The notes: generated from the letters alone by a model not told the origin. A stretch of 64,000 bases of DNA from Candidatus Omnitrophota bacterium (GCA_035368605.1 DAOSLF010000005.1:54520-118519), one strand, 5' to 3'; positions 8,018-59,237 are shown, counted from the stretch's first letter. A program made the numbers and translations.

Positions 8018-8031
8018 AAGTTTCCGCGGCC

Positions 8032-8943: not shown

Positions 8944-8983
8944 GATTTCCTTTTCAGGACTGGCAACTCACTTCGTTCGTAAA

Positions 8984-9056: not shown

Positions 9057-9104
9057 ATATTCCACGAAACCGTCCCGGCATTCATAAAACATCGGGACGG
9101 AGAA

Positions 9105-30745: not shown

Positions 30746-31018
30746 CTGCTTCCCGCCGGGGGATGTTCGTTTCACCCGAGCGGTCATTTTTTTCTTTGTT
30801 GGCATAGATTTTGGAATCATATCACAATATTTTTCTAAAAAAACGGAAAATCATCGGCGGAATCGTGCCTCGGGGGCTGTCAACGGCCATCCTCCTCCCT
30901 TGTGTTATAATTCGAATTCGCCCGCAGATTTCCTCAAAACCGTTAAAAGCGGGACCCGTGCGTAATCAGGAGCTATCAAAAAAATGACGCCTCTTTCTTT
31001 TGCGGAAGGCATTGCGAC

Positions 31019-31924
31019 ATGGAATCCGTAACCTCCGACGGAACAAAACCGCTCGTCAGCGTCATCATCCCCTTTTACAACCGGGCGCATGTCCTCCCCC
31101 GCGCCGTTGATTCCGTCCTTGCGCAAAGGGGCTGTAACTTCGAGCTCATTCTCGTGGACGACGGATCGACGGACGCGGCAACGCCCGGACACGGAGCGCA
31201 AAGTACGAAATACGGAGAAAAAGCCACCGGCCGTCACACTGTACTCCGCGCCCCGCACTCCGTGCCTGTTCGATGGATTTCTCAATCAAATAAAGGCCCT
31301 TCCGCCGCGCGCAATCTCGGCATCCGTCACGCGCACGGCAAATGGATCGCGTTCCTCGATTCCGACGACGAGTGGAAACCCGGCAAGCTCAAGGCGCAGA
31401 TGAAGTTCTTCGAAGAAAATCCGGACTACCGGATTTGTCAGACCGAGGAGATTTGGGTCCGAAACGGCGTGCGCGTCAATCCGATGAAGAAACACAAAAA
31501 ATACGGCGGCTGGATTTTCGAAAAGTGCCTGCCGCTTTGCGTTGTGAGCCCGTCGGCCGTCATGATGCACCGCACGCTCCTCGACGAGATCGGCCTTTTC
31601 GACGAATCGCTCCCCGCCTGCGAAGATTACGATCTCTGGCTCCGGATCGCCTCCCGTTATCCCGTCGGGCTGATCGAAAAACCTTACCTCATTAAATATG
31701 GCGGACACGCGGACCAGCGCTCCCGCGAATTCCCGGCAATGGACCGGTTCCGCATCCGCTCGCTCGTGAAACTGTTAAGGGAAGGCTTCCTCACACCGGA
31801 ACAGACCCTCGCCGCCCGGAAAACCCTTGAGGAAAAATCCCGCATCTTCATCCGGGGCGCGTTAAAGCACGGGAACCGGAAGGAAGCCGGGGAAATCCAG
31901 AGGCTTATCGCGGAGAGTTTATAA
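31019..31924 (+). CDS. Family 2 glycosyltransferase (GT-A), carrying an atypical ~35-aa insertion after the DDGSTD motif
   Basis: VSVIIPFYNRAHVLPRAVDSVLAQ..ELILVDDGSTD ... SARNLGI ... the FLDSDDEW DXD motif ... CEDYDLWLRI. Confidence 0.8.
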   Translation: MESVTSDGTKPLVSVIIPFYNRAHVLPRAVDSVLAQRGCNFELILVDDGSTDAATPGHGAQSTKYGEKATGRHTVLRAPHSVPVRWISQSNKGPSAARNLGIRHAHGKWIAFLDSDDEWKPGKLKAQMKFFEENPDYRICQTEEIWVRNGVRVNPMKKHKKYGGWIFEKCLPLCVVSPSAVMMHRTLLDEIGLFDESLPACEDYDLWLRIASRYPVGLIEKPYLIKYGGHADQRSREFPAMDRFRIRSLVKLLREGFLTPEQTLAARKTLEEKSRIFIRGALKHGNRKEAGEIQRLIAESL

Positions 31925-36796: not shown

Positions 36797-38458
<1,662 letters not shown>

Positions 38459-38953: not shown

Positions 38954-40585
38954 ATGGCAGCTAAATCACTTTCCTATTCCGAAGAAGCGCGTCAGAAGAT
39001 CAAGCGCGGCATCGACATCCTCGCAAGGGCCGTCGCCGTCACTCTCGGTCCGCGCGGCCGGAACGTCGTCATTGACCGCAAGTTCGGCGCCCCGCTCGTC
39101 ACAAAGGACGGCGTCACGGTCGCCAAGGAGATAGACCTGAAGGACCCGTACGAGAATATGGGATGCCAGATGGTCCGCGAGGTCGCCGAAAAGACCTCCG
39201 ATCTCGCCGGCGACGGAACGACGACCGCGACGGTACTCGCCCAGGCCATCGTGACTGAAGGCCTGAAGAACGTCACGGCCGGCGCGAACCCGATGGCCCT
39301 CAAGCGCGGCATCGACAAAGCCACCGAGAAGATCGTCGAATCCGTGAAGAAGCTCTCCAAGACCGTCAAGGGCAAGGAAGACGTCAAAGCCGTCGGCACG
39401 ATCAGCGCCAACAATGACGCTTCGATCGGTGAGATTCTCGCCGACGCGATCGAGAAGGTCGGCAAGGACGGCGTCATCACGGTCGAAGAGGCAAAAGGCA
39501 TGAAGACCGAACTTGAGATCGTCGAAGGCATGCAGTTCGACCGCGGTTATTCGTCCCCGTATTTCGCGACGGACACCGAGCGGATGGAGGTCGTCCTGAA
39601 GGAGCCATACATCCTTCTTTATGAAAAGAAGATCGCCTCCGTCAAGGACCTCGTGCCGATGCTCGAGAAGGTCGCGCGTCTCGGCAAACCGCTTCTCATC
39701 ATCTCCGAGGACATCGAGGGTGAGGCGCTCGCGACACTCGTGGTCAACAAGCTCCGCGGCGTGCTCCAGATCGCGGCCGTCAAGGCACCCGGTTTCGGCG
39801 ACCGCCGCAAGGCGATGATGGAGGATATCGCGATCCTGACCAAGGGGAAATTCATCTCCGAGGATCTCGGCGTAAAGCTCGAGAACGTGGAGCTCGATAT
39901 GCTCGGCACCGCGAAACGGGTCGTGATCGATAAGGACGACACCACGATCGTCGGCGGCGCAGGTTCCGACAAGGACATCAAGGCCCGCTGCGAACAGATC
40001 AAGGTCCAGATCGAGAAATCCGATTCGGACTACGACAAGGAGAAGCTCCTGGAACGCATCGCGAAACTTTCCGGCGGTGTCGCCGTCGTGAAGGTCGGCG
40101 CGGCCACCGAGGTTGAGATGAAAGAGACCAAGGCCCGCGTTGAGGACGCTCATCACGCCACCCGCGCGGCGCTCCAGGAAGGGATCGTCCCCGGCGGCGG
40201 CGTCGCGCTGCTCCGCGCCATCGAATCGCTCGACACCCTCAAGCTGAAAGGCGACGAGGCAACGGGCGTGCAGATCGTGCGGCGCGCGATCGAGGAACCG
40301 GCCCGCAAGATCGCTTCTAACGCCGGTTTTGACGGCTCGGTTGTCGTGAAGAAGATTCTCGAGGGCAAGAACGGTTTCGGTTTCAACGCCCAGACCGGCA
40401 AGTTCTCGGATCTTCTTGAGGACGCGGTCATCGACCCGGCCAAGGTCGTTCGCGTCGCGATCGAGAACGCGACCTCGATCGCCGGTCTCATTCTCACGAC
40501 CGAATGCGTGGTCGCGGAGAAACCCAGGGAAAAGAAAGAGGACGAGAAAAAACCGGCCTCGAACTATTCCGGCAGCATCCGGTAA
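38954..40585 (+). CDS. groL: Chaperonin GroEL, copy 2, with no GGM tail (ends [17 protein letters not shown])
   Basis: 543 aa, a paralogue of copy 1 at roughly 70% amino-acid identity. It shares a 56-nt perfectly identical tract with copy 1 (37105-37160 versus 39267-39322). Confidence 0.95.
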
Positions 40586-44976: not shown

Positions 44977-47900
44977 TCAAGCCGTCGCGGCCTGAGGCGG
45001 GTAGATCGCCACTTTCCTTTGCGCGTTGGACAGGGCGGGTCCGCTCTTGAACGGACTCTTTGACACATCGCGCTCGACCTTGAGGACCCTGATGGGACCT
45101 CTCGGCTGGGAGATGTCCCTGGGCAGGATCAGCTCATTGTGGATGAGCGTCGCGCCGGCCACACCCTCAAAAGCCTGGCGGAGCATCCATCCCGCGGCGC
45201 CGGTATAGCCGTTCCAGATCATGCGCCCCGGCTCGAACGTCGTGAGGAAGTCGGCCGGCTGTTTGTTCGGCTGTCCGCCGTAGATTTCGATCTCCTCCGG
45301 CGTCACGTGAGCGAGCGGCGAGATCTTCGACCAGAGACGGAACGACGTCGCGCGGTATTCGTCCGCTTTCGCGCGATCACCGCGTTTCTCGTATTCCTCG
45401 GCGATCAGGCGCGCGGCACGGACAAGCCACTGGACACCGTGGCAGTACATGCCGTTCTCGCGAACGCCTTCGGGATACTTGCTGCTCCGTCCGAGGTACG
45501 GCTTCGTGTCCTCACGCAGGGCCGGCCATCCGAGGAGGATGACGCTGCCGCGTTCAAGAACCGAAAGGGCCGTGTTGAAGATGGTGACCCCGCGATCGAA
45601 GTTGATCCCTGTATAGACCGACCAGGCGGCCGTCAGGGCATCGATCTCCCACACCCCGCTGTCCTTCACGCCGATCTCGGTGCCATCGTCGTGAATCGCG
45701 CGAAGGTAGCGGTCACCACGCCAGGTCTTCTCCAGCGCCGTGGCCAGGTCCTTCATTTTCGCGGTGTAATGTTCCTTGCGTTTCACGCCATCCTTGCGCT
45801 CGATCGCCGGAAGCATCTCGCGCAGGATGTAATAGAGGAAGAACCCGAGCCACACGCTCTCGCCCTTCCCCCCGCTGCCGATCTCGTCGAGACCGTCGTT
45901 CCAGTCGCCGACACCCATGAGAGGAAGACCGTTCCGTCCCATGCGGTGATCCAGGACTGTGTCGATCGACCGCATGCAGTGGCGGTAGACCGTGTCGGCC
46001 CGGGTCGAACGTCCATAAAGGGCGCCCCACCCGTGCTTGTTCTTCGGGAGCGGCGCGAACGGGAACTCGGACGTCACATACGACGTCATCTCGTCCAGGA
46101 TCGTGTCATCGCCCGTGATGCGGATGTACTCGCCGACCCCCCACGCGATCCAGAGCAGGTTGTCGGAGGCGTGCGACCGGCACGAAAAGGCCGAACGGCC
46201 GTCCGTCAGCGTGAAGAACCAGTGGAACACGTCGCCCTCGATGAACTGCTGGGAGGCATGCAGGATGATTTGCTTGCGCGCGAGCGCGGGGTCCACCCAT
46301 GTGAGGTTGACCGTATCCTGCAGCTGGTCGCGGAAGCCGAACGCGCCGCTCGTCTGGTAGAAACCGCGGCGGGCCCAGATGCGTTCCGCGAGGGCCTGAT
46401 ATTTCAGCCAGTTGAGGTAACGATCGAACTCGGGCTGGTTCGTCTGAAGCGTGGTCGTGCCCATGAGCCCAAGCCACCATTTCCGGGTCTCATCAAGCGT
46501 CGTCTTGACCATCTCCATATTCTTGTACTTCTGGACCAGCTGGATCGCATGCTTCCTGTGGTCGGTCTGCCCGAGAATGATGGCGACCGTGCGCTCCCCG
46601 CGCGCCGGGACTTCCAGCGTCCCGACAAAAGCCGCGACCTGCGCATTATCGGTCATTTGCAGCGCATCCGGTTCCGCGCGCTCGACAAAATAGGGGTCCA
46701 CGGGACCCCGCCCGCTTCCAAAGAAGCAGCCGCGTTTTGTCGTGACGTTATCCGCCGGAATCGACATTGAAACGAAGGCCGACCCGGTGCGGAAGGTGTT
46801 CCTCGGATTTTCGAAGAAAAGGGCGTCCAGCGCCTTGTCGTACTTCGTAACGAGCGGGCCCGAACGTTCCGGCTGGAACGCGAGCGCCATCTGGAAATAC
46901 GGGGCGACGCGGATCTTGCGCGCCTGGTCCTCGTGGTTGCGGACCGTCAGGAGGTAAACCCCCATCGGGTCTTCCGTCGGCACGAACACCGTCAGTTCGG
47001 TCGAGAGGTTCCCCTTGGACATCCGGAAAACCGCCGTTCCGTCCACGCCGAATTCGCACTCGTTCTTCGCGGCCGTGTCGTTCAGCGGGTGATGCGTCGG
47101 CGAATACCACTCACCGCGGTCCGGCTCATACAGGTAGATCGCCTCCGACGGGATCTCACGCGTCACCGTGTCCGGCCAGTCGGGCGTCACGCGGTTCTGC
47201 TGGGAATTCCCGTTACAGGAGGTGTGAAGACCGCGATTCGTGACCATCACGGAATGCACGGGGTTCGCCATGCCGTGATCGAACGGGCGCGGCGTGTAGG
47301 GGGTCTTGACGAGCAGCCGGTCCCCGTCGTTCTTGAATTCGTAATAGGGCTGCGGGGTTCCCTCCGGAATCTCGCCATGACCGATCAAAAGCGCGTGCTT
47401 TTTCGGCTGGAACGCGGACGGGATTTTTTTCGGGTCCGGCTTCAGGTGCTTCGCGATCATCTCAAGCGCCTGTTCTTTCTTTTTCGCGTAGCCGATCATG
47501 AGTTTCACGGTCTTTTTCGCGCCGGCGGCAAGCGGCAGATGGATCAGGAAACTGCCGATCGGATCGAAAGTCGGGCAGGCCGGCGTGTCCTTCGCCTCGA
47601 GAAAATCAAGCGTCTCGACGATCCGCGGCGACCAGATGCTGCGCGCGCGGCCGATGAAATCGACGCGCCCCGTCAGGAAGCCTTCGGGGGCGATATCGGA
47701 CGCGAGGAATCCCATGGACTTCGTGCTCTTGTTCCAGGAAAGCATCGCGTTCGAGGCGTTCACGTACTGCATCTCGGGATAAAGCCGCTGGTACTGCGTG
47801 TGGAAACGGTCATGCATCCACCCGTTCAGCACCCATTCGAGGTACGGGACGACCTTGAGCTGGCGCTCGCGGTCCGTCAGGTTCTCGACGGTAATGCTCC

Positions 47901-50900
47901 AGATCTCGGCCGTGCTGTCCTGGTCGGGCAGCGTGATATCGATCGAGGTCCGGACCCCCTGGTTCGAGTTCGTGATCCGGAGCGTGTCGTCGACCTTTTC
48001 GGCCTTTGAAGGAGCGAAATAGCGTTCCGGGAAATTGCCGGCGACCGGCCACGCCCGTTCGGCGCTGTCCGGGGCCCTGCCGGTATCCACGAGATAAAGA
48101 ACGCGGCCGCAGGGATCAACAAGGTCATAAGAACGGCGGGTGACGTCGCATTCCTTGTTGATGACTTCCCCGTAGACCTCGGTGTTCTCTTTCATCGTGA
48201 TGCGGTACTCGCGATTCGCGACCGTGTAGCTTGCGATCTTCCGCCGGGCCGCGCGCCGGTGAAGTTTCCGGACGATCATGGAAACAACCGAAAAAAGAAC
48301 CACCGCGGCGGCGATCAGAAGCACGAGCTGCGGCCAGGACATCGACTGCAGCGCGGGGATCAATCCCTTGCCGCGATGCGCGTTCTGGATCTTTTCGGCC
48401 GTCCCCCAGACCTCGTCCCACTGCGCTCCGCGCGGAAGATAGAACGGGATCAGAAGCGGCGCCCACGTCGTGAACCGTTTGACGCCTTCGGGAATGTAGC
48501 GCTGGGCGGCCGCGGGACCGATGAACCGCGCAACCTTTTCATCCAGCTTGTCCATCCCGAGAAAGCTCAGGTTCACGAGCGTCGCGACGCGAAGCCCCAT
48601 GTGGTCCATCCAGATCAGGATCCGGAAGAAATCAAAGGCCAGAATCCAGACGAAGATCTTGAGGCTCCATTCCTGGAACGCAGGCGCGGACATCGTGAAG
48701 CTGTTCCACGTGGCGATACAGGTGCGGATCAAACCGTCCTGGTTATACCACGTCGCGACCGGCATCATGCGCAGGAACGTGTAGATGATCGGCGACATCC
48801 AGAGACCCCAACGAAGGACGTAGATCATCAGTTCGGTCAACTGGGCGAGACCCGCCTTCGAGAAGAAGAACTTGATCGGGGTCTTGTCCTTGTCGAAGAA
48901 CGCCTGCATGAACACCTTGTTGATAGCGAAAAGCCACGTGGCAACCGACCACTTGATGACGCCGTCGAGGGATTCCGTAAAAAGCAGTTTGACGCCGCCC
49001 CGGCAGAACCCGAGGTCCACCTGCCCCCATTTGCTGATCAGAACCGGCTGCACGTAACGGCCTTCGCTGCTGAAATAAGGGTACATCGTCGGGGTCATCC
49101 GGCCGGTCGCGTCGAAGGAAGGATAGGAGGCGATTTGCGCAGTCGTAAAATGCGACGTGATGTAAAGGTTGAATTTGTAGATGACGACCGCGACCTGCTG
49201 GGCGTCCATATAGAAGGCCAGCATGCCGCCGAGGAAACCGCCAAGGAGCGAATCGATAAAATAAAGTCTCCAGGACTGAACCTTCCCGCAACCTTTCATC
49301 ATGTAAACAAGGTCGCGGAAAAAACTGATGCCGCCGGATGCGAGAAACCCGATCATGAGCCCGAAGAGAATACGATCCGAGGTCGACCGATGGATGTAAC
49401 CCTGCACGATCATCGCGGCGATCCCGAAACCGGCCACCGCGCCGCGCGCGTAAAGCACGCGGTTCCGGTAGCTGTAGGCGAGCCGGTCAAAGAACGGCAT
49501 GCTGCCGTCAAAGCTTTCGATAATGGTCTTCGCGAACGGGAACACGATCGCCCCGAGCAGGATGCCGATCACGTACGGGAATGAGGCCATGACCTTCTGC
49601 GCCGCCGGCATCATGAAGATCGTCGCGAGCACGTAGAGGATCGTCATCAGGATGCCGCTGTACGCCATGCCCTTTTTCATACCGGTCGTAACGTTCCTGA
49701 AAATGGTGTCCTCGGAAGGGGCGATATGTTTGCCGCCATCCAGGAGGATACCGGTCACGAGGTAGACCTCTCCCCAAAGACCAGCGAACGAAAGGACGGT
49801 GGTCACCACGGAGACGAGGGCCCGTAGCGCCATCGGCCAGGTGCCGATCACAGCCGCGGAGCCGAGGTTCGCGATCGCCGGTGCGAGCACGACCGCGAGC
49901 GAGACCAGCAGGAGAAGGCCGTGCGCCCTGGGCGTTTTCAGGAACCGGCCTTTAGTCGCGTAGCTCATACCGTTCGAGAGGAGTTCATTGAAAACAAAGA
50001 CAACCACCAGCCGGCCGAGCCCGTCAAGGACCGCGGGCCACGCCGCGAGAAGACCGAAGGTCAGGGAGTACGCCATCGTCTTGATCAGGGTGGCATTTTC
50101 GAGGAGCAACAGCAGACCGACCAGATAGGGCGTACCGACGATCAGGGCCGCAGGAACCGGCGCCGCATGCTTGCCGGAAGAGCCCATCGCATTGGCGTTG
50201 AAGATCTGATAAACAAGGAAAGCGACCGCCGCCGTGAGCTTGTTGACCATCAGCAGGTTGCTCCACACCGTCGGGATTTGCAGGAGTTCCAGGCGGCTCG
50301 AGGAAAAAGCGAGCAGTGCCGCAATGAAGAAATCCTGAAAGGCTTCGGCCGGCGTCAGATGCCTGCCGATGTGCTTCACCTTGAGGCATTCCGCAATCAG
50401 CGCGCCCGCGAGACCGACAAGCAGGAACCAGAAACCCGCTTCGGCGGGACCTTTTAGTCCGAGGATGTAAATCCAGAGCGCGACACCCGCGATCGCGGCC
50501 ACGATCACTCCGTAGAAAAGATCCGTCAGCAGACGGGAGATCAAAGACACCCTGGCGGCTTCCGGAAGCGCCGCGACGGCCGGTTTCTTTACCGTCCGCT
50601 TGCCCGCCAGAAACGCGAGCAGGGCGAGGAAAAGACCTCCGAGGACCGCGGCCCCGATCTTGACGGGAAACAGATACCGTTGCATGAACGTGATCCTGGA
50701 GAAATCGGCGCTGAGGAACAGTGTGCCGCGCGCGGGAGCATCCCCTTTCGGCGTGATCACAAAAACCACTTCGGCGAGACTGCCAATATCTGTCCATCGC
50801 ACCGGTTTGCGGACGATGTTCCAGCCCGGCTTCAGGCCAAGCGGGACCGTCTTCGTTCCGACGCTTCCCTTGATCTCCGCCCGCACCGTGATCTTGTTCA

Positions 50901-51843
50901 GCTGATCGGCCTCGAGGACCTGATAGCTGAGGGTAACCGTATTGGTCTGCTCGAGTTCGGAAGCCGGCGGGAACTTTTTGGTCCAGACACGCATTTCGGA
51001 ACCCGGGACAAGGGTGTAGCCGGTATCAAGGATATCCTTCCGGATTTCTCCGTCGAAAGTCAGCGTGGCGGAACCCTTCGCGCCTCCGGTGGTCGTTGTC
51101 CCGTATTTTTTCATCTCCTGGACGAACGCGACCGCGGCAGAGCCCACTTTCCTGGCCGTTTCTTTCATTGCGGCAGACACTTTCGCCGCGGCCTGGCTCG
51201 CGGCGGCCGCCATCCTTTGCGCTTCAACCCTCGCCTTTGTCGCGGGAGCGGCCGCGGCTGTCCTTACAAGGTCCGCGGCAATATAAAGGGTTCCCCTGGA
51301 AGGGGCCTCGCCCGCCGGCGCGACCACAAAGGCGATTCCGCTCAGCGTCCCGATCTTCTCCCGATCGATCGTTCCCTGGACATGATTGATCCCCTGTTTA
51401 AGACTGACGGGCAGGCTCTGAACGCCCTTCGTGCCGAGGATCTCCATTTTCACCGTAACCGCCCGGGATTGCGCGGCTTCCGGAACGCTGATCACGGCCT
51501 TGACCGATGTCACCGGGGACACCGCCACTTCCGGGGGAAAATCTTTCGCCCAAACGCTGATGGAAGAACCGGTGGCAAGCGTGTAGGTGAAATCCCACAC
51601 ATCCTTCCGCAGGGATTCCTCATAAGTCGAGGTGATCGTTCCTTTCGCGTCTCCGGACGGGGTCACGCCCTTCGCCTTCGCGTCCTGGAGCCGGAAAGAC
51701 GCGGCGGGCTCATCGGCGGCCGGAACCGGCGACGGACCGCAAATTAAAAACGCCGCCAAGGCCGAGAAGAACACGGCCGCGAGGCGGCGTCGGGAAAGCT
51801 TCGGGAACGGAAAGGATCCGCGGGAGGGCGAGGCTTGATTCAT
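44977..51843 (-). CDS. Giant membrane protein (about 2288 aa from MNQASPSRG...). It has a signal peptide, 2 x ~130-aa periplasmic repeats, an ~850-aa polytopic membrane module of unknown family, and a ~1000-aa GH94-like glycoside-phosphorylase / cyclic-glucan-synthase-like C-terminal region.
   Basis: C-terminal motifs FGFRDQLQDT, GVGDWNDGLD and TGAAGWM fit the GH94 (alpha/alpha)6-barrel phosphorylase family. The first 75 codons of the listed ORF (44977..52068) fall in an AT-rich non-coding-looking stretch. An ATG at 51841-51843 begins a signal-like peptide RRRLAAVFFSALAAFLICGPSPVPAA. Confidence 0.8.
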   Translation of the reverse strand: MNQASPSRGSFPFPKLSRRRLAAVFFSALAAFLICGPSPVPAADEPAASFRLQDAKAKGVTPSGDAKGTITSTYEESLRKDVWDFTYTLATGSSISVWAKDFPPEVAVSPVTSVKAVISVPEAAQSRAVTVKMEILGTKGVQSLPVSLKQGINHVQGTIDREKIGTLSGIAFVVAPAGEAPSRGTLYIAADLVRTAAAAPATKARVEAQRMAAAASQAAAKVSAAMKETARKVGSAAVAFVQEMKKYGTTTTGGAKGSATLTFDGEIRKDILDTGYTLVPGSEMRVWTKKFPPASELEQTNTVTLSYQVLEADQLNKITVRAEIKGSVGTKTVPLGLKPGWNIVRKPVRWTDIGSLAEVVFVITPKGDAPARGTLFLSADFSRITFMQRYLFPVKIGAAVLGGLFLALLAFLAGKRTVKKPAVAALPEAARVSLISRLLTDLFYGVIVAAIAGVALWIYILGLKGPAEAGFWFLLVGLAGALIAECLKVKHIGRHLTPAEAFQDFFIAALLAFSSSRLELLQIPTVWSNLLMVNKLTAAVAFLVYQIFNANAMGSSGKHAAPVPAALIVGTPYLVGLLLLLENATLIKTMAYSLTFGLLAAWPAVLDGLGRLVVVFVFNELLSNGMSYATKGRFLKTPRAHGLLLLVSLAVVLAPAIANLGSAAVIGTWPMALRALVSVVTTVLSFAGLWGEVYLVTGILLDGGKHIAPSEDTIFRNVTTGMKKGMAYSGILMTILYVLATIFMMPAAQKVMASFPYVIGILLGAIVFPFAKTIIESFDGSMPFFDRLAYSYRNRVLYARGAVAGFGIAAMIVQGYIHRSTSDRILFGLMIGFLASGGISFFRDLVYMMKGCGKVQSWRLYFIDSLLGGFLGGMLAFYMDAQQVAVVIYKFNLYITSHFTTAQIASYPSFDATGRMTPTMYPYFSSEGRYVQPVLISKWGQVDLGFCRGGVKLLFTESLDGVIKWSVATWLFAINKVFMQAFFDKDKTPIKFFFSKAGLAQLTELMIYVLRWGLWMSPIIYTFLRMMPVATWYNQDGLIRTCIATWNSFTMSAPAFQEWSLKIFVWILAFDFFRILIWMDHMGLRVATLVNLSFLGMDKLDEKVARFIGPAAAQRYIPEGVKRFTTWAPLLIPFYLPRGAQWDEVWGTAEKIQNAHRGKGLIPALQSMSWPQLVLLIAAAVVLFSVVSMIVRKLHRRAARRKIASYTVANREYRITMKENTEVYGEVINKECDVTRRSYDLVDPCGRVLYLVDTGRAPDSAERAWPVAGNFPERYFAPSKAEKVDDTLRITNSNQGVRTSIDITLPDQDSTAEIWSITVENLTDRERQLKVVPYLEWVLNGWMHDRFHTQYQRLYPEMQYVNASNAMLSWNKSTKSMGFLASDIAPEGFLTGRVDFIGRARSIWSPRIVETLDFLEAKDTPACPTFDPIGSFLIHLPLAAGAKKTVKLMIGYAKKKEQALEMIAKHLKPDPKKIPSAFQPKKHALLIGHGEIPEGTPQPYYEFKNDGDRLLVKTPYTPRPFDHGMANPVHSVMVTNRGLHTSCNGNSQQNRVTPDWPDTVTREIPSEAIYLYEPDRGEWYSPTHHPLNDTAAKNECEFGVDGTAVFRMSKGNLSTELTVFVPTEDPMGVYLLTVRNHEDQARKIRVAPYFQMALAFQPERSGPLVTKYDKALDALFFENPRNTFRTGSAFVSMSIPADNVTTKRGCFFGSGRGPVDPYFVERAEPDALQMTDNAQVAAFVGTLEVPARGERTVAIILGQTDHRKHAIQLVQKYKNMEMVKTTLDETRKWWLGLMGTTTLQTNQPEFDRYLNWLKYQALAERIWARRGFYQTSGAFGFRDQLQDTVNLTWVDPALARKQIILHASQQFIEGDVFHWFFTLTDGRSAFSCRSHASDNLLWIAWGVGEYIRITGDDTILDEMTSYVTSEFPFAPLPKNKHGWGALYGRSTRADTVYRHCMRSIDTVLDHRMGRNGLPLMGVGDWNDGLDEIGSGGKGESVWLGFFLYYILREMLPAIERKDGVKRKEHYTAKMKDLATALEKTWRGDRYLRAIHDDGTEIGVKDSGVWEIDALTAAWSVYTGINFDRGVTIFNTALSVLERGSVILLGWPALREDTKPYLGRSSKYPEGVRENGMYCHGVQWLVRAARLIAEEYEKRGDRAKADEYRATSFRLWSKISPLAHVTPEEIEIYGGQPNKQPADFLTTFEPGRMIWNGYTGAAGWMLRQAFEGVAGATLIHNELILPRDISQPRGPIRVLKVERDVSKSPFKSGPALSNAQRKVAIYPPQAATA

Positions 51844-52116
51844 CTTTTTTTGACCTTTCTTTAATCGGTGAAGTAACTTTCGAAAAGATTCCCCTTGAAC
51901 ATGGACTTTCAGGAAAATGGACTTGCGAAAATATGACACCTGATCGAAGAATAAAGACGGCGTATTATACCCGGAAACCCGATTTTCGGAAGGTTTTGTT
52001 TTTATCAAAGGAATGTTATATGATGCCCCGCATGAACCCCGTTGGAGACAGGACCTGCTTTCCGGCAAGTCCTTGTCCGTCCCTTAACGTCGGCTTTCAG
52101 ACAAACCTGTCTTCTT

Positions 52117-53373
52117 ATGAGTAACCATAAAACAAAACACAAACGTCACTCCGACGGGTTAAAAGCCCTCCTTTTGACAAATGAGTATCCCCCTTACGTC
52201 TACGGCGGCGCGGGGGTTCATGTCGATTACCTGAGCCGGGAGCTATCCAGGCTTTGCCCGGTCGACATCCGCTGTTTTGGCGACCAGAAGATCGCGAGGC
52301 CGGGTTTCAAAGTGACGGGCTTCGGCCTGCAAGGGAAAAAACCGGGCGCCCCGAAGGAACTTCTTCCGGTTTTCGGCGCCCTGCGCCGCTGCGTGGATTT
52401 CAACGCGGCCGGCAGTGATGCCGACATCGTCCACGTTCACACCTGGTACACACACTTGGGCGGAATCCTCGCGAAACTGAACTACGGCATCCCTCTCGTG
52501 CTCACCACGCACTCCCTCGAACCCCTCCGGCCCTGGAAACGCGAACAGCTCGGCAATGGTTATGATTTCAGCTGCTGGATCGAGAAGACCGCAATCGAAA
52601 TGGCAGATGCCGTCGTCGCTGTTTCCGAGGAGGCGCGACGGGACGTACTCCGGCTCTTCCTCGTCGACAAAAGACGGGTCCATGTGATCCATAACGGCAT
52701 CGACCCGCAGGAATACCGCAAGGGACACGCCCCGGAGAAAATCCGCCGTTTCGGGATCAACCTTTCTAGGCCTTATGTCCTCTTCGTGGGCCGGATCACG
52801 CGCCAAAAGGGCATCATCCATCTCGTGAACGCCATCCGTCATATGGACCCGGGTTTTCAGGTCGTCCTCTGCGCAGGCGCTCCGGACACAAAAGAGATCT
52901 GGCGGGAAATGAAAGCGCGCGTGGCGGAGATCCGGAAAGAACGTCCGGGCGTGATCTGGATCGACGAGACGGTGGACGATCCGGTCAAGATCGCCCTTTA
53001 TTCCCATGCCGCGCTCTTTTGCTGTCCTTCAATCTACGAGCCGTTCGGGATCATCAATCTTGAGGCCATGGCCTGCGAAGTCCCCGTCGTAGCGAGCGCG
53101 GTCGGCGGCATCAAGGAAGTCGTCGTTCCGGGCGAAACGGGCACCCTCGTCCCGGTACGACAACACCGGGCCAGCCCCTTCGAACCGATTTTCCCCGGAA
53201 AATTCTCGGAAGACCTGGCGCGGGAGATCAACCGTCTGATGAAAGACGCCGCGCTCCGAAAGCGCATGGGCAAGGCGGGACGCCGGCGCGTGATTAAAAA
53301 TTTCAGCTGGCGATCCGTCGCGAAAAAATATCACGCCCTCTACCGCTCTCTCACCCGCCCCTCCGGCCGCTGA
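52117..53373 (+). CDS. glgM: GT4 glycosyltransferase of the GlgM / Corynebacterium-type glycogen synthase family (probable alpha-maltose-1-phosphate synthase)
   Basis: LLLTNEYPPYVYGGAGVHVDYL, HSLEPLRPWKREQLGNGY, FVGRITRQKG, VVLCAGAPDT and SIYEPFGIINLEAMAC closely follow the mycobacterial GlgM pattern. Start taken at MSNHKTKHK. Confidence 0.75.
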   Translation: MSNHKTKHKRHSDGLKALLLTNEYPPYVYGGAGVHVDYLSRELSRLCPVDIRCFGDQKIARPGFKVTGFGLQGKKPGAPKELLPVFGALRRCVDFNAAGSDADIVHVHTWYTHLGGILAKLNYGIPLVLTTHSLEPLRPWKREQLGNGYDFSCWIEKTAIEMADAVVAVSEEARRDVLRLFLVDKRRVHVIHNGIDPQEYRKGHAPEKIRRFGINLSRPYVLFVGRITRQKGIIHLVNAIRHMDPGFQVVLCAGAPDTKEIWREMKARVAEIRKERPGVIWIDETVDDPVKIALYSHAALFCCPSIYEPFGIINLEAMACEVPVVASAVGGIKEVVVPGETGTLVPVRQHRASPFEPIFPGKFSEDLAREINRLMKDAALRKRMGKAGRRRVIKNFSWRSVAKKYHALYRSLTRPSGR

Positions 53374-53458: not shown

Positions 53459-54772
53459 CTATGGTCCCGTGACGACCTCCGGAATGATCCCCTTCTGCGC
53501 GTAGATGGGGCGGATCTTTGCCTTGACAAGGGGAAGCTTCCTCAAAAAAACAACGGCGCCCGCGACGCAGCAGGCGCCGCTGAAAAAGATCGTAAGGGAA
53601 GCGCCGATCCTGCCCGCGAGCCCTCCGGCCAGGAGACTCCCGAAAGGCGCCATCCCCATGAACGACATCGTGTAAAGGCTCATGACCCTTCCCCGCTTGT
53701 CTTCTTCCACAATGGTCTGAAGGATAGTGTTACAGGAAGCCGTGTGGACGATCATCCCGAAACCCGAGAACCAGCTGATAAGAAGCGAAAGGGAGAAACT
53801 CCTGGACAAGGAGAGCGCGATCATGCTGATCCCGAAAAGACCCGCCATCCGCGCGAGAACCTTTCCCAGCCCGACCACGCTCCTGCGCGCGGCCAGAAAA
53901 AGCGCCCCGGCCAGCGCGCCCGCCCCGGACATGGCCATCAGGAAACCGAGGGTATGCGGCCCGCCTCGGAAAACATCTTTCGCGAACACCGGCATCAGAA
54001 CCGGATAGGCAACGCCCATCAGACTCACAACCGACAGGATAAAAAGAATCCAGCGAATCGGCACGGAACGGAACCCGTAGGCAAGACCTTCCCTCAGTTC
54101 GTGCCAGATCCTTTGCTCCGGAATGAACAGCCTCCCGGCCGCGACCTTCATGGCACAAAGCGACAGCACCACGGGAATATAACTGACCGCGTTCAGGAAA
54201 AAGCAGACCCCTTCCCCCGCCCAAGCGATCAGGAGGCCGGCCGCCGAAGGCCCGATAAGCCGCGCCGCGTTTATCATCGACGAGTTCAGGGCGATCGCAT
54301 TACCAAGATCTTCGCGCTCCTCGACCATTTCGATCGTGAAGGATTGACGGACGGGAATATCGAAAGAATTGATGATGCCCAGAAAAGCGCTCAGCGCGAC
54401 CACATGCCACACCTGTATCCTTTGAGAGAGCACAAGAAAGGCCAGCAGGGACGCCTGCAAAAGGGCCGCGACCTGCGTCACGATCAGAAGGGATCGCCGC
54501 TCATGCCGGTCCGCCAGCACGCCGGCGACCGGCGAGATCAGGAAGGTCGGAATCTGCCCGACAAAGCCCACAACGCCGAGCCAGATCGGTGAACTTGTCA
54601 TGCGGTAGACCAGCCAGCCCACGGCCACCTGCTGCATCCACGTCCCGACCAGCGAGATTCCCTGCCCGAAGAAAAAGAGCCGATAATTGCGGTGCCGCAA
54701 TGCGCGGAACATGGATCGCAAGTCGATTCCGCGGGAAGGTCGGGGGTCCGGAACGCTCATGGCCGGACTCAT
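53459..54772 (-). CDS. MFS transporter (EntS/macrolide-efflux-like)
   Basis: 437 aa with 12 predicted TM segments and the MFS motif region LADRHERRSLL. Its start overlaps the macB stop (ATGA). Confidence 0.85.
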   Translation of the reverse strand: MSPAMSVPDPRPSRGIDLRSMFRALRHRNYRLFFFGQGISLVGTWMQQVAVGWLVYRMTSSPIWLGVVGFVGQIPTFLISPVAGVLADRHERRSLLIVTQVAALLQASLLAFLVLSQRIQVWHVVALSAFLGIINSFDIPVRQSFTIEMVEEREDLGNAIALNSSMINAARLIGPSAAGLLIAWAGEGVCFFLNAVSYIPVVLSLCAMKVAAGRLFIPEQRIWHELREGLAYGFRSVPIRWILFILSVVSLMGVAYPVLMPVFAKDVFRGGPHTLGFLMAMSGAGALAGALFLAARRSVVGLGKVLARMAGLFGISMIALSLSRSFSLSLLISWFSGFGMIVHTASCNTILQTIVEEDKRGRVMSLYTMSFMGMAPFGSLLAGGLAGRIGASLTIFFSGACCVAGAVVFLRKLPLVKAKIRPIYAQKGIIPEVVTGP

Positions 54773-56736
54773 TCGTACCGCAGGGAACGGATGGGATCAA
54801 GGGCAGCGGCCTGTTTCGCCGGCCAAAGGCCGAACAGGATTCCCACACCCGCGGAAAAAAGAAACGCGAGGCAGAGGGAACCGAAGGTAATGATCATCTT
54901 CCACTTCGCGAAGGTTGCGATCAGCCAGGAGACCACACCGGCCAGGGCGATGCCGGTCAGCCCCCCCAGAAAAGTAATCATAACCGCTTCCACGAGAAAC
55001 TGTACCAGGATATCGCGGGACGTGGCGCCAAGCGCCTTCCGAAGACCGATCTCACGCGTCCGCTCCTTCACCGAAACAAGCATGATATTCATGATCCCGA
55101 TCCCGCCGACCACGAGCGAAATCGTCGCAACGCTCCCGAGAAGGATCCCGAAGGTCCGCGTCGTACTGGAGAGCGCGGCCTGAATATCCGCAAAGTTCCG
55201 GATATTGAAACTATCGTAACGGTCGGGCGTCAGGTGATGTCGCCGGATAATCAGGGCGCTGATCTCCTCCTGCGCGGCGGGCATCGCGCCAAGCTCCGTG
55301 ATCTCCGCGTCAACCTAATCCAGATAGTCCTTCCCCATCAGCCGTTTCATGGCGGTCATGAGCGGGATCACAACCATGTCATCCTGGTCGTGAAAGGCGC
55401 TGGCTCCCCGAGAGGGCAGGATCCCGAGAATCTGAAAGTTCACACGATTGATCTTGATCGTTTTTCCGATCGGGTCTTCTGTTCCGAAAAGATTTTTCTG
55501 AACGGTCTGGCCGACCAACGCCACCCGCAAGCGTCTCTGATTTTCGTCCGAAGTGAAAAAACGTCCCGCAACGGGTTCCTGGTTCCTCATTGGGGCGTAT
55601 TCGGGAACCGCGCCGATCACCCGCGTGGTCCAGTTCTTGTCTTCAAACACAAGCTGTCCCTGACCGGTCACCTGGGGAGACACCCTCCTGACCGATGGCA
55701 CTGCGGCGATCGCCCGGGCATCATCAAGCGTCAGGCGCGTTGCCGCCCCCGCCTCAACGCTGGCGCCGCGAACCTTGACCGACCCGGGACGGATCGTCAA
55801 AAGATTGGAGCCCATTCTGGCAAGATCTTCCTTGACCGATTCCGCGGCGCCCCGTCCCAGGGCCAGCATCGTAATCACACAGGCCACCCCGATCAGAACG
55901 CCGAGGATGGAAAGGAACGACCGCAATTTGTTGTTGAGGACCACGCGCCGCGCCAGCCGGAAATGCTCGAGAAATTCCCCGTAATTGTATCTTTTTTTTC
56001 TCAAGCTTCCTCCCCGATCCAGGTCCGCAATCCCTGTCACGGACTGCTCTTTCGCGGGGATCCGCCGTTCATCGCTGACGATCTTCCCGTCATGCATCCG
56101 GACGACACGCTCCGCCTCTTTCCCCACTTCCTCGCCGTGCGTGACAAGCACAATGGTCATGCCTTGCCGGTGAAGCTCCTTGAAGATTCCGAGGATCTCC
56201 TGTCCGGCCCTGGAATCAAGGTTCCCCGTCGGCTCGTCGGCAAGAATCATCAGCGGTTTTGTCACAAGGGCGCGGGCGATCGCGACTCGCTGCTGCTGGC
56301 CTCCCGAAAGTTCGTTCGGGCGATGGCCGGTACGGTTCGAAAGACCGACCCTGGCAAGCATCTCCCGGGACCGGTCGAGGTCCCCCGCGCGGTCATCGGA
56401 ATAAAGCAGCGGGAGACAGACGTTTTCAAGGGCGGTGGAGCGCGCCATCAGGTTAAATTGCTGGAACACAAAACCGACCACCCGGTTTCTGAGGAAGGCA
56501 TACGCTTCGTCCGAAAGGCGGGAGGTGTCCCGGCCCATCAGACGAACCGTTCCGCTGTCGGGCCGGTCCAGGAACCCCAAAAGATGCATCAGCGTGGACT
56601 TGCCGGAACCGGAAGGCCCCATGATCGCGATGAATTCGCCGGCATGGATCGTCAGAGAAACATCCTGAAGCGCGCGAACCTCGACTTCGCCGATCTTGTA
56701 GGTTTTGGAAATGTTTTCGACTTCGAGCAGTTTCAT
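54769..56736 (-). pseudogene. macB: MacB-type ABC transporter (ATPase fused to FtsX-like permease) interrupted by a single in-frame TAG at 55315-55317. Listed as two ORFs, 55315..56736 and 54769..55284, both in the same frame.
   Basis: ORF1 has Walker A GPSGSGKST, signature [17 protein letters not shown]1 and most of the periplasmic domain. Reading through the TAG gives ...DYLD*VDAEITELGAMPAAQEEI... continuing in frame into the FtsX C-terminal TM bundle. Combined length is about 655 aa, the normal MacB size. Confidence 0.75.
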
Positions 56737-57743
56737 GAGGATTTCGTGGCGCCACTTTTTCTGGCGGCGCGCGGCGAGCCGAAAAGATTCGAGGATCTTT
56801 CCTTTTCCTTCTTCCTGACCACCGCGATCTCCGCGCCTTCTTTCAGGCCGTCCGTGATCTCGGTCCTGACGCCGTCGGTTTCCCCCGTCTTGACGGCCAC
56901 CGGTTCCAGTTTGCCTCCGAAAACTTTTTTGTAAACCGCAAAGACCGCACCGGAGGGGTTCGGGATGTTCTTCGGCCAGGCCACGACCGCCTCCGAGGGG
57001 ACCGTAAGAACATTTTTGCAGTCCTTAACGATAAAGGTAACGTTCGCGGTCATCCCGCTCCGAAAAGATTCGGACAACGCTTCCGGGGCCACATCGATCG
57101 CATAGACATTGACGTTGTTTTCGAGCGTGCTTTCGAACGCGATATGGTCGACCGTACCGGGGACAAGCTCGTCCCGGTAGGCGTCCAGCGTGATCTCCAC
57201 CGGCTGAGCGAGCCGGATGAACGCGAGATCGGTCTCGTCCACCAGGGCCTGAACGATCAGGCGGTCGGAAAGGACCACCACCGGATCCGCCGTCGTGACC
57301 GTTTGACCGGGTTCCACCGAGCGAACAATGATCGTCCCGTCGAGCGGGGCAAGGAGCGGCGCGGGCAGATAGGCTTCTTCCCACCGTTTGACAACTTCGT
57401 CGCCCCTGGAACGCGCGGCATCGAGCAGAGCCGCCCTCTCGACCGAGCTCATGCGGGCCAGCACCTGCCCTTTCTTCACTTCGTCCCCTTCGCGCACCAG
57501 CACTTCCTCGATCCGTCCCGCGATCGGCGCCTTGACCTCGACGCGATTATAGGGCTGGACCGTCCCTGTCGAACTGACCGTCACGGACAGGTCTCCGCGA
57601 ACCACCTGGGCGGTCCGGACAATCTGGAGATCCCCCTTCGCCGCCCCGCAGGAGGCAAAAATCCTCATGAGGAGGAACACTCCGATCGCGACCAGGGTGA
57701 ACCTGGCCGGGCGCGAAAGTTTATGGGGTAACGATTTCATCAT
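56733..57743 (-). CDS. macA: Efflux periplasmic adaptor (membrane fusion protein, MacA-like); lipoprotein
   Basis: Start at MMKSLPHKLSRPARFTLVAIGVFLLMRIFASC (lipobox FASC) with a GGAGG SD. It has HlyD-family biotinyl-lipoyl and beta-barrel segments. It overlaps macB (ATGA) and the upstream OMP gene by about 20 nt. Confidence 0.85.
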   Translation of the reverse strand: MMKSLPHKLSRPARFTLVAIGVFLLMRIFASCGAAKGDLQIVRTAQVVRGDLSVTVSSTGTVQPYNRVEVKAPIAGRIEEVLVREGDEVKKGQVLARMSSVERAALLDAARSRGDEVVKRWEEAYLPAPLLAPLDGTIIVRSVEPGQTVTTADPVVVLSDRLIVQALVDETDLAFIRLAQPVEITLDAYRDELVPGTVDHIAFESTLENNVNVYAIDVAPEALSESFRSGMTANVTFIVKDCKNVLTVPSEAVVAWPKNIPNPSGAVFAVYKKVFGGKLEPVAVKTGETDGVRTEITDGLKEGAEIAVVRKKEKERSSNLFGSPRAARKSGATKSS

Positions 57744-59061
57744 AAGCATCCTCCAGGGTGGCGCCCTGTGTTTTTTCCCAATTGGCCTGCTGAGTAAAAA
57801 CATCGGCCAGGCTTTCGACATAATCTTTTTCGGCGTTCGCATTCTCCTGTTCCGCGGTATCAAAATCCGTGAAATTGACGAGCCCGCTCGTGTATTCCGC
57901 CCGGATGATCTCGGCGCGCTTCTGCGCGGCCTCAAGGAATTTCTTTTTCACGCTGACCGCGTCAACCGCGTCCGCGTACGGTACCCAGGCGGCCGACAGG
58001 GCGGCGATGGCCTCGTCACGGGCACTTTTCGCGGCGCTTTCGGCGGCATCGTAATCCGCTTTCGCCTTCCGGATCGCCGCGACGTTCTTCCCGCCCTCAA
58101 AGAACGGGACCGACACACGAACGCCAAGGGAGCTCTGGTCTTTCAAGCGGGACGCGCGATCGCCTGTATAACCGTACTCATAGGTCCCGTCGACCCGGGG
58201 CCACACGGCCGATTGGGCCGAAACGACATTCGCCCTGGACGCTTCGGCCGTTTTAAGGAGCCTCATCACCGCGGGCGTCTTTTCGGCCAACGCGACATAA
58301 TCCGCCTCCGACAGCGTGACGCCGCCAAGCATTTTCTCCAGACCATCCGTGATCCGGAGCGGAAGCAAAAAATCCCCGCCGCTTTCGCGCGCAAGACGGA
58401 GCGATTCTTTTTCAAGCAGACGCTCCGTCTGCTTGACGTCAAAGCCGGCCTGATCGGCGATCGCCTCCGCCCGGAGGGCCGATCCCACGTTCTCGCGGCC
58501 GGCCTCGTAGCGGAGACGAACCATTTCCGCGTTTTGCTTGCGTCTCTCGAGGATCTGCCGGTTCGTCTTCAAAAGCCTTTCCAGACGGATCACGCTTATA
58601 TAGGAAGACCGCAGGCGGTAACGGACGTCCGCGCTGGTCTCGTCGTAGGCCATACGGGCCGCTTCAAGTTCCTTGCGGGCCTTGATCCAGTCTCCCGTCG
58701 TCCCGAACCCGTTAAAAAGGTTCTGACTCGCGTTGATATCGAGACTGAGCGTGTCCGCATGGGCCCCGGGCATGGTCTTTCGCGAAACATTCTTTTGCAT
58801 GCTCCCTTCCACCGAGGGAAGAAAATCTCCTAGCGCGATGTCGCGATTACGGGCGGCCGATGTCACGCGGGAGCGGGCTCCCCGGAGGTCGGGATTCCGG
58901 CTAAGGGTCTGCCGGACGAGACCCTCCCAGGTCAATGTTTCGGGCTCGGCGCGACGCTCGATCTTCGCCTGGGGCAGGCTGACGGTCCGGCAGCCGCCCA
59001 GAAAAAAAACGGCGGTTAACGCCGTTATCGCGAACTTCCATCTCGCCGTGTTCTGCCGCAT
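57721..59061 (-). CDS. TolC/NodT-family outer-membrane efflux lipoprotein
   Basis: Start at MRQNTARWKFAITALTAVFFLGGC (lipobox LGGC), followed by two OEP repeats. It is the first gene of the OMP-MFP-MacB-MFS operon. Confidence 0.85.
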   Translation of the reverse strand: MRQNTARWKFAITALTAVFFLGGCRTVSLPQAKIERRAEPETLTWEGLVRQTLSRNPDLRGARSRVTSAARNRDIALGDFLPSVEGSMQKNVSRKTMPGAHADTLSLDINASQNLFNGFGTTGDWIKARKELEAARMAYDETSADVRYRLRSSYISVIRLERLLKTNRQILERRKQNAEMVRLRYEAGRENVGSALRAEAIADQAGFDVKQTERLLEKESLRLARESGGDFLLPLRITDGLEKMLGGVTLSEADYVALAEKTPAVMRLLKTAEASRANVVSAQSAVWPRVDGTYEYGYTGDRASRLKDQSSLGVRVSVPFFEGGKNVAAIRKAKADYDAAESAAKSARDEAIAALSAAWVPYADAVDAVSVKKKFLEAAQKRAEIIRAEYTSGLVNFTDFDTAEQENANAEKDYVESLADVFTQQANWEKTQGATLEDAYDEIVTP

Positions 59062-59237
59062 GCTTCGTCTTGTCCTTATGTTGGTGCCTTCAGGTTTGAC
59101 CGCTAAAACGCCGACAAAGTTCCGCTTGTCTGAAATTGTGGTATCGTTCGGGGAGAGGCCGGAAGGCGCTGTTCTCATCGCGGGGGACGCGATCCGGGTC
59201 CGGGACCTTTTGTCCGTGAAATTCCGGAAGGTGTATC

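Follow-up and report, generated by a model that had tools for sequence, protein, structure and literature searches.

A polytopic membrane module outside any described family is fused to a GH94-type phosphorylase in a Candidatus Omnitrophota bacterium and its relatives

We analyzed a 64,000-nucleotide stretch of DNA from a Candidatus Omnitrophota bacterium (GCA_035368605.1, DAOSLF010000005.1:54520-118519), hereafter the window, for a giant minus-strand gene that lies divergently beside a glgM gene. The open reading frame (ORF) spans 44977..52068, and an ATG at 51843 gives a product of 2288 amino acids (aa) that begins MNQASPSRGSFPFPKLSRRRLAAVFFSALAAFLICGPSPVPAADE. From its N to its C terminus, the protein consists of a signal-like peptide, two repeats, a polytopic membrane module, two supersandwich domains of glycoside hydrolase family 94 (GH94), and a GH94 catalytic domain. 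A first-pass annotation had placed the start at 51843 and had described an unassigned polytopic module fused to a GH94-like phosphorylase domain. The start and the length of about 2288 aa were confirmed by translation and by an identical 2288-aa gene call with the same neighbors in NCBI assembly GCA_029553765.1 (contig JAKPKJ010000061.1, 176 kb), and the fusion was borne out by Pfam, NCBIfam, and PDB comparisons. The features of the gene are given below, where Cgs is the synthase of cyclic beta-1,2-glucan and GP is its phosphorylase part.

44977..51843, minus strand: giant gene, 2288 aa, with the stop codon included at 44977 (ORF list and translation)
51712..51843, minus strand: signal-like N-terminus, aa 1-44 (sequence and a hydropathy peak at aa 22-40)
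51262..51657, minus strand: repeat 1, aa 63-194, predicted periplasmic (match to repeat 2; conservation about 25%)
50689..51090, minus strand: repeat 2, aa 252-385, predicted periplasmic (match to repeat 1)
48241..50673, minus strand: polytopic membrane module, aa 391-1201, of unassigned family (about 20 helices, about 16-18 membrane spans)
49507..49530, minus strand: invariant motif KTIIESFD, aa 772-779, with E776 and D779 (invariant or near-invariant columns)
48406..49029, minus strand: hyper-conserved module core, aa 939-1146 (75-83% identity in 58 full-length homologues)
47491..48222, minus strand: first GH94 supersandwich, aa 1208-1451, equivalent to Cgs GP1 (Pfam GH94_b-supersand)
46570..47292, minus strand: second GH94 supersandwich, aa 1518-1758 (PF06165, full-length match)
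45154..46476, minus strand: GH94 (alpha/alpha)6 catalytic domain, aa 1790-2230 (PF17167, E 3e-58)
45895..45897, minus strand: codon of D1983 in GDWND, the predicted general acid (alignment to Cgs D2528)

The gene is real and not a chance ORF, given that its GC content at third codon positions (GC3) is 0.78, similar to that of the window's other real genes, and that it has hundreds of homologues. Long ORFs on the opposite strand over it (e.g., 45139-46770 and 48259-49584) have low GC3 and were treated as shadow ORFs.

The roughly 810-aa module is a membrane domain outside any described family, as the first-pass annotation had held. The only Pfam matches in the giant protein were GH94 domains, and no NCBIfam family matched it. 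No Pfam family was found in aa 381-1215 even at E<=10, and a profile of the module family matched nothing among all PDB sequences at the same threshold. The AlphaFold model of the module, with a predicted local distance difference test (pLDDT) score of 88.8, about 20 long helices, and a disordered loop only at aa 908-936, matched no membrane-protein fold in the PDB. Neither sequence nor fold comparison linked the module to GT-C, MOP/Wzx, BcsA-type, MFS/RND/ABC, or acyltransferase-3/MBOAT proteins. An internal duplication, which is typical of transporters, was considered and dropped after hhalign detected no internal repeat. The hydrophobic region had been described as about 850 aa long with at least 16 membrane spans; it is real and polytopic, but it measures about 810 aa (aa ~391-1201), and hydropathy gives about 14 strongly hydrophobic spans against about 20 long helices in the AlphaFold model. 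The spans are dense from aa 396 to ~885 and are followed by weaker, conserved amphipathic helices to ~1108 and by a strong last transmembrane helix at 1173-1191.

The module core (aa 939-1146) and the GH94 core are the most conserved regions of the protein, at 75-89% identity in the 58 full-length homologues. Across 81 sequences, short forms included, 116 module positions are at least 95% conserved, the majority of them within aa 939-1146, where the motifs RWGLWMSPII, WYNQDG, DHMGLRVATLVNLSF, and IPEGVKRFTTWAPLLIPFY are found. Trp, Tyr, Phe, Arg, Asp, and Asn are abundant among these near-invariant positions, with counts of 11 for Trp, 10 for Arg, 8 each for Asp and Phe, and 6 for Tyr. The KTIIESFD motif is predicted to sit at the cytoplasmic end of a transmembrane helix. 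Given that the core is 75-83% identical across phyla and that 116 positions are near-invariant, the module looks functional and more than an anchor.

The C-terminal part carries two features of GH94 membership, the supersandwich together with the (alpha/alpha)6 domain and the general-acid Asp in DWND. The hallmarks quoted in the first-pass annotation were recovered both as Pfam domains and as the motifs FGFRDQLQDT, GVGDWNDGLD, and TGAAGWM, located at aa 1835-1843, 1979-1984, and 2214-2220. D1983 is the second Asp of GDWND (aa 1979-1983), is 97% conserved in the family, and aligns, after a 19-residue offset between the two PDB sequences, with D2528, the GH94 catalytic residue of Cgs in wild-type numbering (PMC11842490). 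The predicted catalytic Asp is thus intact. FGFRDQLQD and YCHG are conserved in the family, and the Cgs segment aligned with FGFRDQLQD has the same sequence. By analogy with cellobiose phosphorylase structures, these motifs may supply the phosphate-binding Arg and His.

The best PDB sequence matches were the cryo-electron microscopy structures of Agrobacterium tumefaciens Cgs (E 2e-105); cellobiose and chitobiose phosphorylases followed at E 1e-34 or weaker (4e-34 for cellobiose phosphorylases), and the 1,2-beta-oligoglucan phosphorylase (SOGP) of L. phytofermentans was marginal (E 1e-3). Alignment to Cgs was confined to residues 2050-2758, strongly, and ~1546-1806, weakly, and nothing before ~1546 was aligned, the cyclase at 979-1535 included. 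In Cgs, the cyclase (979-1535) is followed from 1536 by the phosphorylase, in which a Rossmann-like insert (1847-2012) lies between GP1 and the later GP2 and GP3, and a GT84 domain sits under a six-helix membrane domain (PMC10901819). In contrast, Pfam found no glycosyltransferase family in the 2288 aa, nor in aa 381-1215 at E<=10, and no PF10091 or PF11329 match in the 2288 aa. The two supersandwich domains are only about 50 residues apart, so the Rossmann-like insert is absent as well. Of four defining features of Cgs that could be compared, three are therefore missing (GT84, an in-cis cyclase, and the small six-helix membrane domain with every soluble domain in the cytoplasm), and one, a GH94 GP with its Asp, is present. 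By its domain content, the protein classifies as a GH94 member and not as a member of the Cgs family, and it would act in part as the trimming half of Cgs and the soluble SOGPs do. The proposal that this is not a Cgs/NdvB protein stands: Pfam and PDB sequence comparison gave neither GT84, nor a cyclase, nor an end-to-end alignment, the C-terminal part is GH94-like, and the hydrophobic region falls in no known membrane family.

The signal-like N-terminus reads KLSRRR, LAAVFFSALAAFLI, and VPA/AD, so the RRR, the 14-residue hydrophobic core, and the VPA-AD of the proposed signal-like peptide are all seen. The two tandem repeats of about 130 aa that had been noted are likewise real, with 41% identity over 131 aa, no gaps, and E 5e-36. 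The family consensus of repeat 2 is FNIGxAxG...DY...GVWTK...EIKG...GWN...W..IG.L.EVVFVV.P. The repeats had no match in Pfam or among PDB sequences, and their sole signal was an hhalign probability of 55% to proteins resembling carbohydrate-binding module family 11 (CBM11) that are encoded beside homologues. Assignment to a known CBM family has no backing from Pfam or PDB, and a carbohydrate-binding beta-sandwich nature is a guess. Conservation across the 58 full-length homologues is lowest in the repeats (25-40% identity). The linker between them (aa 195-251, window 51091-51261, minus strand) is Ala-rich, of low complexity, and 8% identical. Members of the family range from ~2040 to ~2700 aa, and repeat number or linker length therefore differs between lineages. 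Shorter forms of ~1650-1890 aa contain the module and both GH94 parts and lack the N-terminal repeats; the repeats are therefore accessory, and the module and GP form the conserved unit.

Basic loops of the module (KRTVKK, KVKHIGRH, KGRFLKTPRAH, GKH..MKKG, and KDKTPIK) alternate with neutral loops, and RKLHRRAARRK directly follows the last helix (aa 1170-1201). By the positive-inside rule, this alternation places the GH94 part in the cytoplasm, and it fits an out-to-in orientation of both the first and the last helix; the signal-like N-terminus would put the repeats on the extracytoplasmic side. Conserved residues would then fall into three tiers, one facing the cytoplasm (E776, D779, R787, R800, and D844), one within helices (W690, N975, R1011/W1012, and D1080/H1081/R1085/N1091), and one facing the periplasm (W1032-G1037 along with much of 1109-1146). 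Such a polar and aromatic track is what the path of a hydrophilic polymer would be expected to look like.

Relatives of the module occur in 178 species of the GTDB, which we scanned with one genome per species, and the locus counts below rest on the best 80 of these 178. Omnitrophota make up most of the best 80, which also include Elusimicrobiota, Planctomycetota, Auribacterota, FCPU426, and one Chlamydiota bin, and all come from metagenome-assembled genomes (MAGs) or single-cell genomes. A tblastn search with four parts of the protein found the order repeat, module, GP1, and GH94 in 80/80 loci where the contig was long enough. An exhaustive hidden Markov model search of 1.84 billion cluster representatives gave 589 matches at E<=1e-3 and 263 at E<=1e-30. 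The short forms come from Beijerinckiaceae and Deltaproteobacteria MAGs, with a partial member from a Methylocystis MAG. Databases name these proteins "cyclic beta-1,2-glucan synthetase," "glycosyl transferase family 36," or "GH36-type glycosyl hydrolase domain-containing protein," and the family is uniformly misannotated as cyclic glucan synthase or "glycosyl transferase family 36." Literature searches found no paper on a membrane-fused GH94 without a glycosyltransferase domain or on this family in Omnitrophota.

The existence of a stand-alone "core" protein was considered and dropped, as further homologue searches gave only fragments of less than 500 aa, one of them from a frameshifted long-read call. 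That word-indexed searches with the conserved core returned only such fragments is explained by broken gene calls, as in an ENA long-read assembly (L081:7414-10769) where a homologue is broken into at least 5 calls (177, 382, 177, 66, and 93 aa). Two short core-matching fragments (P0192 and P0312) have unrelated Pfam matches, one to BPD_transp_2 and the other to PDZ-type families. Their contigs measure only 1.6-2.5 kb, and both fragments are probably chimeric or miscalled, although they would be noteworthy if they proved to be genuine alternative fusions.

The setting of the gene in the related loci is variable. De novo clustering of 718 flanking ORFs gave no universal neighbor, and among 125 immediately flanking genes there was no recurrent glycosyltransferase, GT4 included, or exporter. 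The commonest Pfam family among these 125 genes was PF10091, with 10 members, and the rest reflected local synteny; a conserved operon partner was rejected beyond PF10091 in a minority of loci. The PF10091 neighbors fall into a GH144-type-like kind and a Cgs cyclase/GH189-like kind. A secreted homologue of GH144-type endo-beta-1,2-glucanases lies upstream in 8 loci (7e-66 to XCC2207 and 1.5e-42 to C. pinensis SGL), and a GH189/Cgs cyclase-like protein lies shortly downstream in 12 loci of two separate clades (3.5e-44 to the T. italicus Cgs cyclization domain, 8wy1, and 1.6e-41 to A. tumefaciens Cgs 978-1099). Each GH189-like neighbor carries either a signal peptide or a lipobox, and its N-terminal domain is CBM-like (examples are L032:15655-17754, L013:12544-14733, L014:17475-19733, and L036:15588-17654, with 8 further loci); no extracytoplasmic GH189 relative appears to have been characterized so far. 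GH189 is a strict beta-1,2-glucanotransferase that cyclizes linear chains (PMC10834661).

Clade L025-L062 has the giant gene within an operon on one strand, together with SBP_bac_1, a two-component system, two ABC permeases, and a ROK kinase, a gene content that is the makeup of a utilization locus. The order in L036:51-22415 is SBP_bac_1, response regulator, HisKA kinase, CBM11-like lipoprotein, GH144-like protein, TPR protein, giant gene, GH189-like protein, two ABC permeases, an unassigned 256-aa protein, ROK kinase, and M48 peptidase. L032 and L057 share this layout, which is probably that of a beta-1,2-glucan locus. Upstream of the operon in L032 lies a second, soluble GH94 (L032:95-2371; 758 aa with supersandwich and catalytic domain, perhaps truncated at the locus edge), so that a soluble and a membrane-fused GH94 coexist in that genome. 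The proteobacterial short-form genes are orphans amid housekeeping genes. In a Beijerinckiaceae MAG, an amine-oxidase/FAD-type gene (L083:15516-17114) overlaps the short-form stop by 8 nucleotides, suggesting cotranscription with the short-form gene. The giant gene of an Auribacterota MAG has a divergently adjacent neighbor (L054:697-8541, minus strand) whose 2614-aa product combines PATR repeats with a Laminin_G_3 domain and a PEP-CTERM motif.

Because the nearest relative of the GH94 part is the Cgs GP and because GH144-like and GH189-like proteins are encoded beside homologues, the presumed substrate is beta-1,2-glucan. These neighbors are the main independent evidence for that substrate.

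Three genes of the window had been named alongside the giant gene, and all three were located.

52117..53373, plus strand: GlgM-type GT4, the divergent neighbor (TIGR02149, 503.9 bits against a cut-off of 302.4)
29267-30820: glgA (14-22 kb away, a range shared with GT2)
31019-31924: GT2 (14-22 kb away, a range shared with glgA)

The TIGR02149 score upholds the GlgM-type GT4 identification, and glgM and the giant gene are 273 bp apart. The description of the region as glucan-metabolic did not survive, as the window holds mostly housekeeping genes. A class II ribonucleotide reductase (RNR), two GroEL, Alr, RNase D, and an RND pump separate glgM from glgA and GT2; the rest of the window before them contains DnaB, Prs, GlmU, two ABC permeases, TsaD, GatB/GatA, and ThiH/ThiG; and past the giant gene lie GlgM, an MFS transporter, and a MacB-HlyD-OEP pump. 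The pairing with glgM is likewise not a conserved feature, since a GlgM homologue stands beside the giant gene in only 1/80 related loci. That locus is the closest relative, L001 of Omnitrophota UBA1443 (synteny with RNR at 87%, GroEL at 85%, and GlgM at 79%), and the homologue is missing even in the next closest, L018. The adjacency of glgM is local and does not imply membership in a common system.

Other features of the window were also recorded. Two ABC sugar permease genes (7085-8943, minus strand) are 53-62% identical to the permeases of clade L025-L062; they lie 36 kb from the giant gene, beside glmU, prs, and tRNA-Gln (8983-9057). The tandem GroEL (Cpn60) paralogues (36803-38458 and 38954-40585, both plus strand) are about 500 bp apart. 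The MacB-HlyD-OEP tripartite efflux operon occupies 54769-59178 (minus strand); its MacB gene (55315-56736) encodes the ABC and periplasmic core domains, and the next ORF (54769-55284, 171 aa) may be the detached FtsX-like end of MacB, through a frameshift or a split gene.

As the simplest model that uses all the parts, we tentatively favor a self-contained inner-membrane machine acting on beta-1,2-glucan, in which a glucan conduit would be coupled to a beta-1,2-glucan phosphorylase and would work in the uptake or degradative direction. A Sec-type signal would deliver the two repeat domains to the periplasm, the module would span the membrane, and its last helix (aa 1170-1201) would set the Cgs-type GH94 phosphorylase in the cytoplasm. 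The module would form the conduit that joins the periplasm to the phosphorylase, with the conserved aromatic and charged residues lining the path. The repeats would hold a periplasmic beta-1,2-glucan chain, which secreted GH144-like and GH189-like enzymes may first nick or linearize, and the chain would be threaded through the module with its nonreducing end first. With phosphate, D1983 would shorten the chain by one glucose per step and release glucose-1-phosphate inside the cell, so that uptake would need no ATP and the bond energy would be conserved. The cellular ratio of phosphate to glucose-1-phosphate favors phosphorolysis by GH94. All characterized GH94 enzymes, the Cgs GP included, phosphorolyze at the nonreducing end (PMC10901819, PMC11842490). 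This behavior, the phosphate ratio, and the catabolic makeup of one conserved operon are what lead us to favor uptake.

Several points weigh against this model. In most genomes, including this window, its closest relatives, and the proteobacterial short forms, the giant gene stands alone amid housekeeping genes, without a transporter or regulator. Together with the very strong conservation, this setting is a better fit to a constitutive envelope function than to the use of a rare substrate. Both GP and the cyclase-like neighbor are also nearer to the biosynthetic Cgs than to catabolic enzymes, with SOGP matching GP only marginally. Where an ABC importer is present, an additional import route looks redundant. 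Literature searches found no transporter-phosphorylase fusion as a precedent, the conduit path is a putative one, and the substrate specificity is predicted only from homology and neighboring genes.

The stand-alone, strongly conserved gene, the resemblance of GP and its cyclase-like partner to Cgs, and the BcsB-like placement of the repeats are arguments for the opposite direction, export and synthesis, to which we give only slightly less weight than to uptake. Here, the protein would make periplasmic (osmoregulated-type) beta-1,2-glucan without a nucleotide-sugar glycosyltransferase, either by running GH94 in reverse from glucose-1-phosphate or by polymerization in the module itself, as a split Cgs with its GT84 replaced. 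The chain would exit with its reducing end first, possibly driven by the proton gradient, to be received by the repeats as by BcsB domains and, where the secreted GH189-like enzyme is present, cyclized or remodeled. Two of the three Cgs catalytic modules are available, GP in cis and the secreted cyclase-like protein next door in the 12 loci; the gene, in common with opg and cgs, stands alone in a housekeeping setting and is strongly conserved across Omnitrophota, Elusimicrobiota, Planctomycetota, and Proteobacteria; acidic and basic residues that are conserved within helices could couple to protons; and GlgE is a precedent for polymerization from a sugar-1-phosphate donor. However, phosphate far exceeds glucose-1-phosphate in cells, so an extra energy input must be assumed, the protein has no glycosyltransferase signature, and the partners in clade L025-L062 are catabolic (a binding-protein importer, ROK kinase, GH144 endo-glucanase, and soluble GH94). 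The GP domain of Cgs, moreover, only trims (PMC10901819).

The remaining explanations give the module or its neighbor a different role. It is unlikely that the module is itself an enzyme, either a divergent GT-C-type glycosyltransferase using lipid-linked sugars or an acyl, succinyl, or phosphoglycerol transferase acting on the glucan. The dense clusters of invariant Asp, Glu, Arg, and His, the motifs KTIIESFDG, WYNQDG, and DHMGLR, and a size and helix count within the GT-C range would suit an enzyme, and GT-C enzymes also carry periplasmic sugar-binding domains; yet no Pfam GT-C, MBOAT, or acyltransferase family matched at E<=10, the profile found no PDB sequence, and a periplasmic active site would face the side of the membrane opposite GH94. 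We think it quite unlikely that the module is an anchor, scaffold, or sensor that holds the phosphorylase by an ABC importer or a separate synthase or that senses periplasmic glucan. ABC permeases do lie near the gene in one clade, with homologous permeases in the window at 7085-8943, and the Cgs GP likewise works at the membrane within a larger assembly (PMC10901819), but 810 aa, about 18 helices, and 116 near-invariant positions exceed the needs of an anchor, for which Cgs uses 6 helices, the core is as conserved as the catalytic domain, and there are no conserved partner genes. A functional pair with glgM, in which the released glucose-1-phosphate would feed a GlgM and GlgE alpha-glucan pathway under a shared regulatory region, is very improbable: the genes are divergent across 273 bp, with the same layout in L001, and GlgM uses glucose-1-phosphate, but the pair is missing from 79/80 related loci, the close relative L018 included, and no GT4 recurs among the 125 neighbors. 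We give almost no credence to a true Cgs. The database names and the best PDB match point that way, but the alignment reaches only the two GP segments of Cgs, GT84/GT2, the PF10091/DUF3131 cyclase, and the Rossmann-like (RFL) insert are all absent, and the membrane part is unrelated when the AlphaFold model is compared with PDB folds, so the domain content already refutes this explanation.

Beta-1,2-glucans belong to the molecules of the cell envelope and of interaction with hosts. To our knowledge, only two kinds of beta-1,2-glucan synthase are known, Cgs and OpgH, and the few degrading enzymes were found in the last decade. The family described here keeps the Cgs phosphorylase and swaps the rest for a large conserved membrane domain of no known family or fold. 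Solving its function would define a new membrane protein family, correct annotations, and reveal either a new, energy-saving form of polysaccharide uptake or a new way of synthesis and export. Should the conduit role be proved, the module would be a new kind of polysaccharide translocase; that it is such a translocase with a new fold, and that the protein is the first case of inner-membrane glucan transport directly coupled to a phosphorylase, are claims that we would make only with considerable doubt. If they held, one version would be ATP-free, processive phosphorolytic import. The more striking version would be a synthase-exporter that makes periplasmic beta-1,2-glucans from glucose-1-phosphate without nucleotide sugars, in phyla with no known periplasmic-glucan pathway, with the secreted GH189-like cyclase completing a "split Cgs." Knowledge of its function would also open a first way into the glucan metabolism of ultrasmall bacteria that are uncultured and often host-dependent, and the secreted GH189-like partner is a natural stand-alone, extracytoplasmic relative of the Cgs cyclase for enzymology.

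Among known systems, GH144 and GH189 enzymes (5GZH, 8XUL, and 8WY1; PMC10834661, PMC12102758) are the families of the sole recurrent neighbors in other genomes, but they are not part of the giant protein and none is encoded within this window. The OpgH/OpgG/OpgD system for osmoregulated periplasmic glucan resembles the proposed one in that it handles beta-1,2-glucan at the inner membrane, its partners in the periplasm are of glucanase type, and its genes stand alone, although no homology to the giant protein was detected. OpgH is a GT2 that uses UDP-glucose, and OpgG and OpgD belong to GH186 and are not GH144-like or GH189-like. BcsA-BcsB has a cytoplasmic catalytic domain beneath a membrane channel lined by aromatic residues, two periplasmic domains of carbohydrate-binding type, and a single helix packed against the channel. 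The analogy with a cytoplasmic enzyme, a membrane part, and two periplasmic domains is functional only, given that BcsA is a GT2 that uses UDP-glucose in place of a phosphorylase and has no sequence or fold similarity to the module. Soluble SOGPs (Listeria innocua Lin1839, PMC3960220, and L. phytofermentans, PDB 5H3Z) share the GH94 fold with an extra N-terminal supersandwich, the presumed beta-1,2-gluco-oligosaccharide substrate with glucose-1-phosphate as product, and, as in clade L025-L062, a place in ABC sugar importer loci; unlike the giant protein, they are cytoplasmic enzymes without a membrane module.

Cgs is the closest comparison. The giant protein lacks the Cgs N-terminal domain, the GT84 polymerase with its Tyr primer loop, the GH189 cyclase domain, and the Rossmann-like insert that separates GP1 from GP2; its unrelated module contributes about 16-18 helices where Cgs has 6, and it carries predicted periplasmic repeats that Cgs does not have; and the cyclase-like protein, where present beside homologues, is separate and secreted. 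What the two share is that the C-terminal ~1090 aa of the giant protein correspond to the GP half of Cgs (GP1, the second supersandwich, and the (alpha/alpha)6 domain), that the catalytic Asp stands in the same GDWNDG context with SGAFGFRDQLQDT identical in both, and that both are large inner-membrane proteins with a phosphorylase that is cytoplasmic in Cgs and, by predicted topology, in the giant protein as well.

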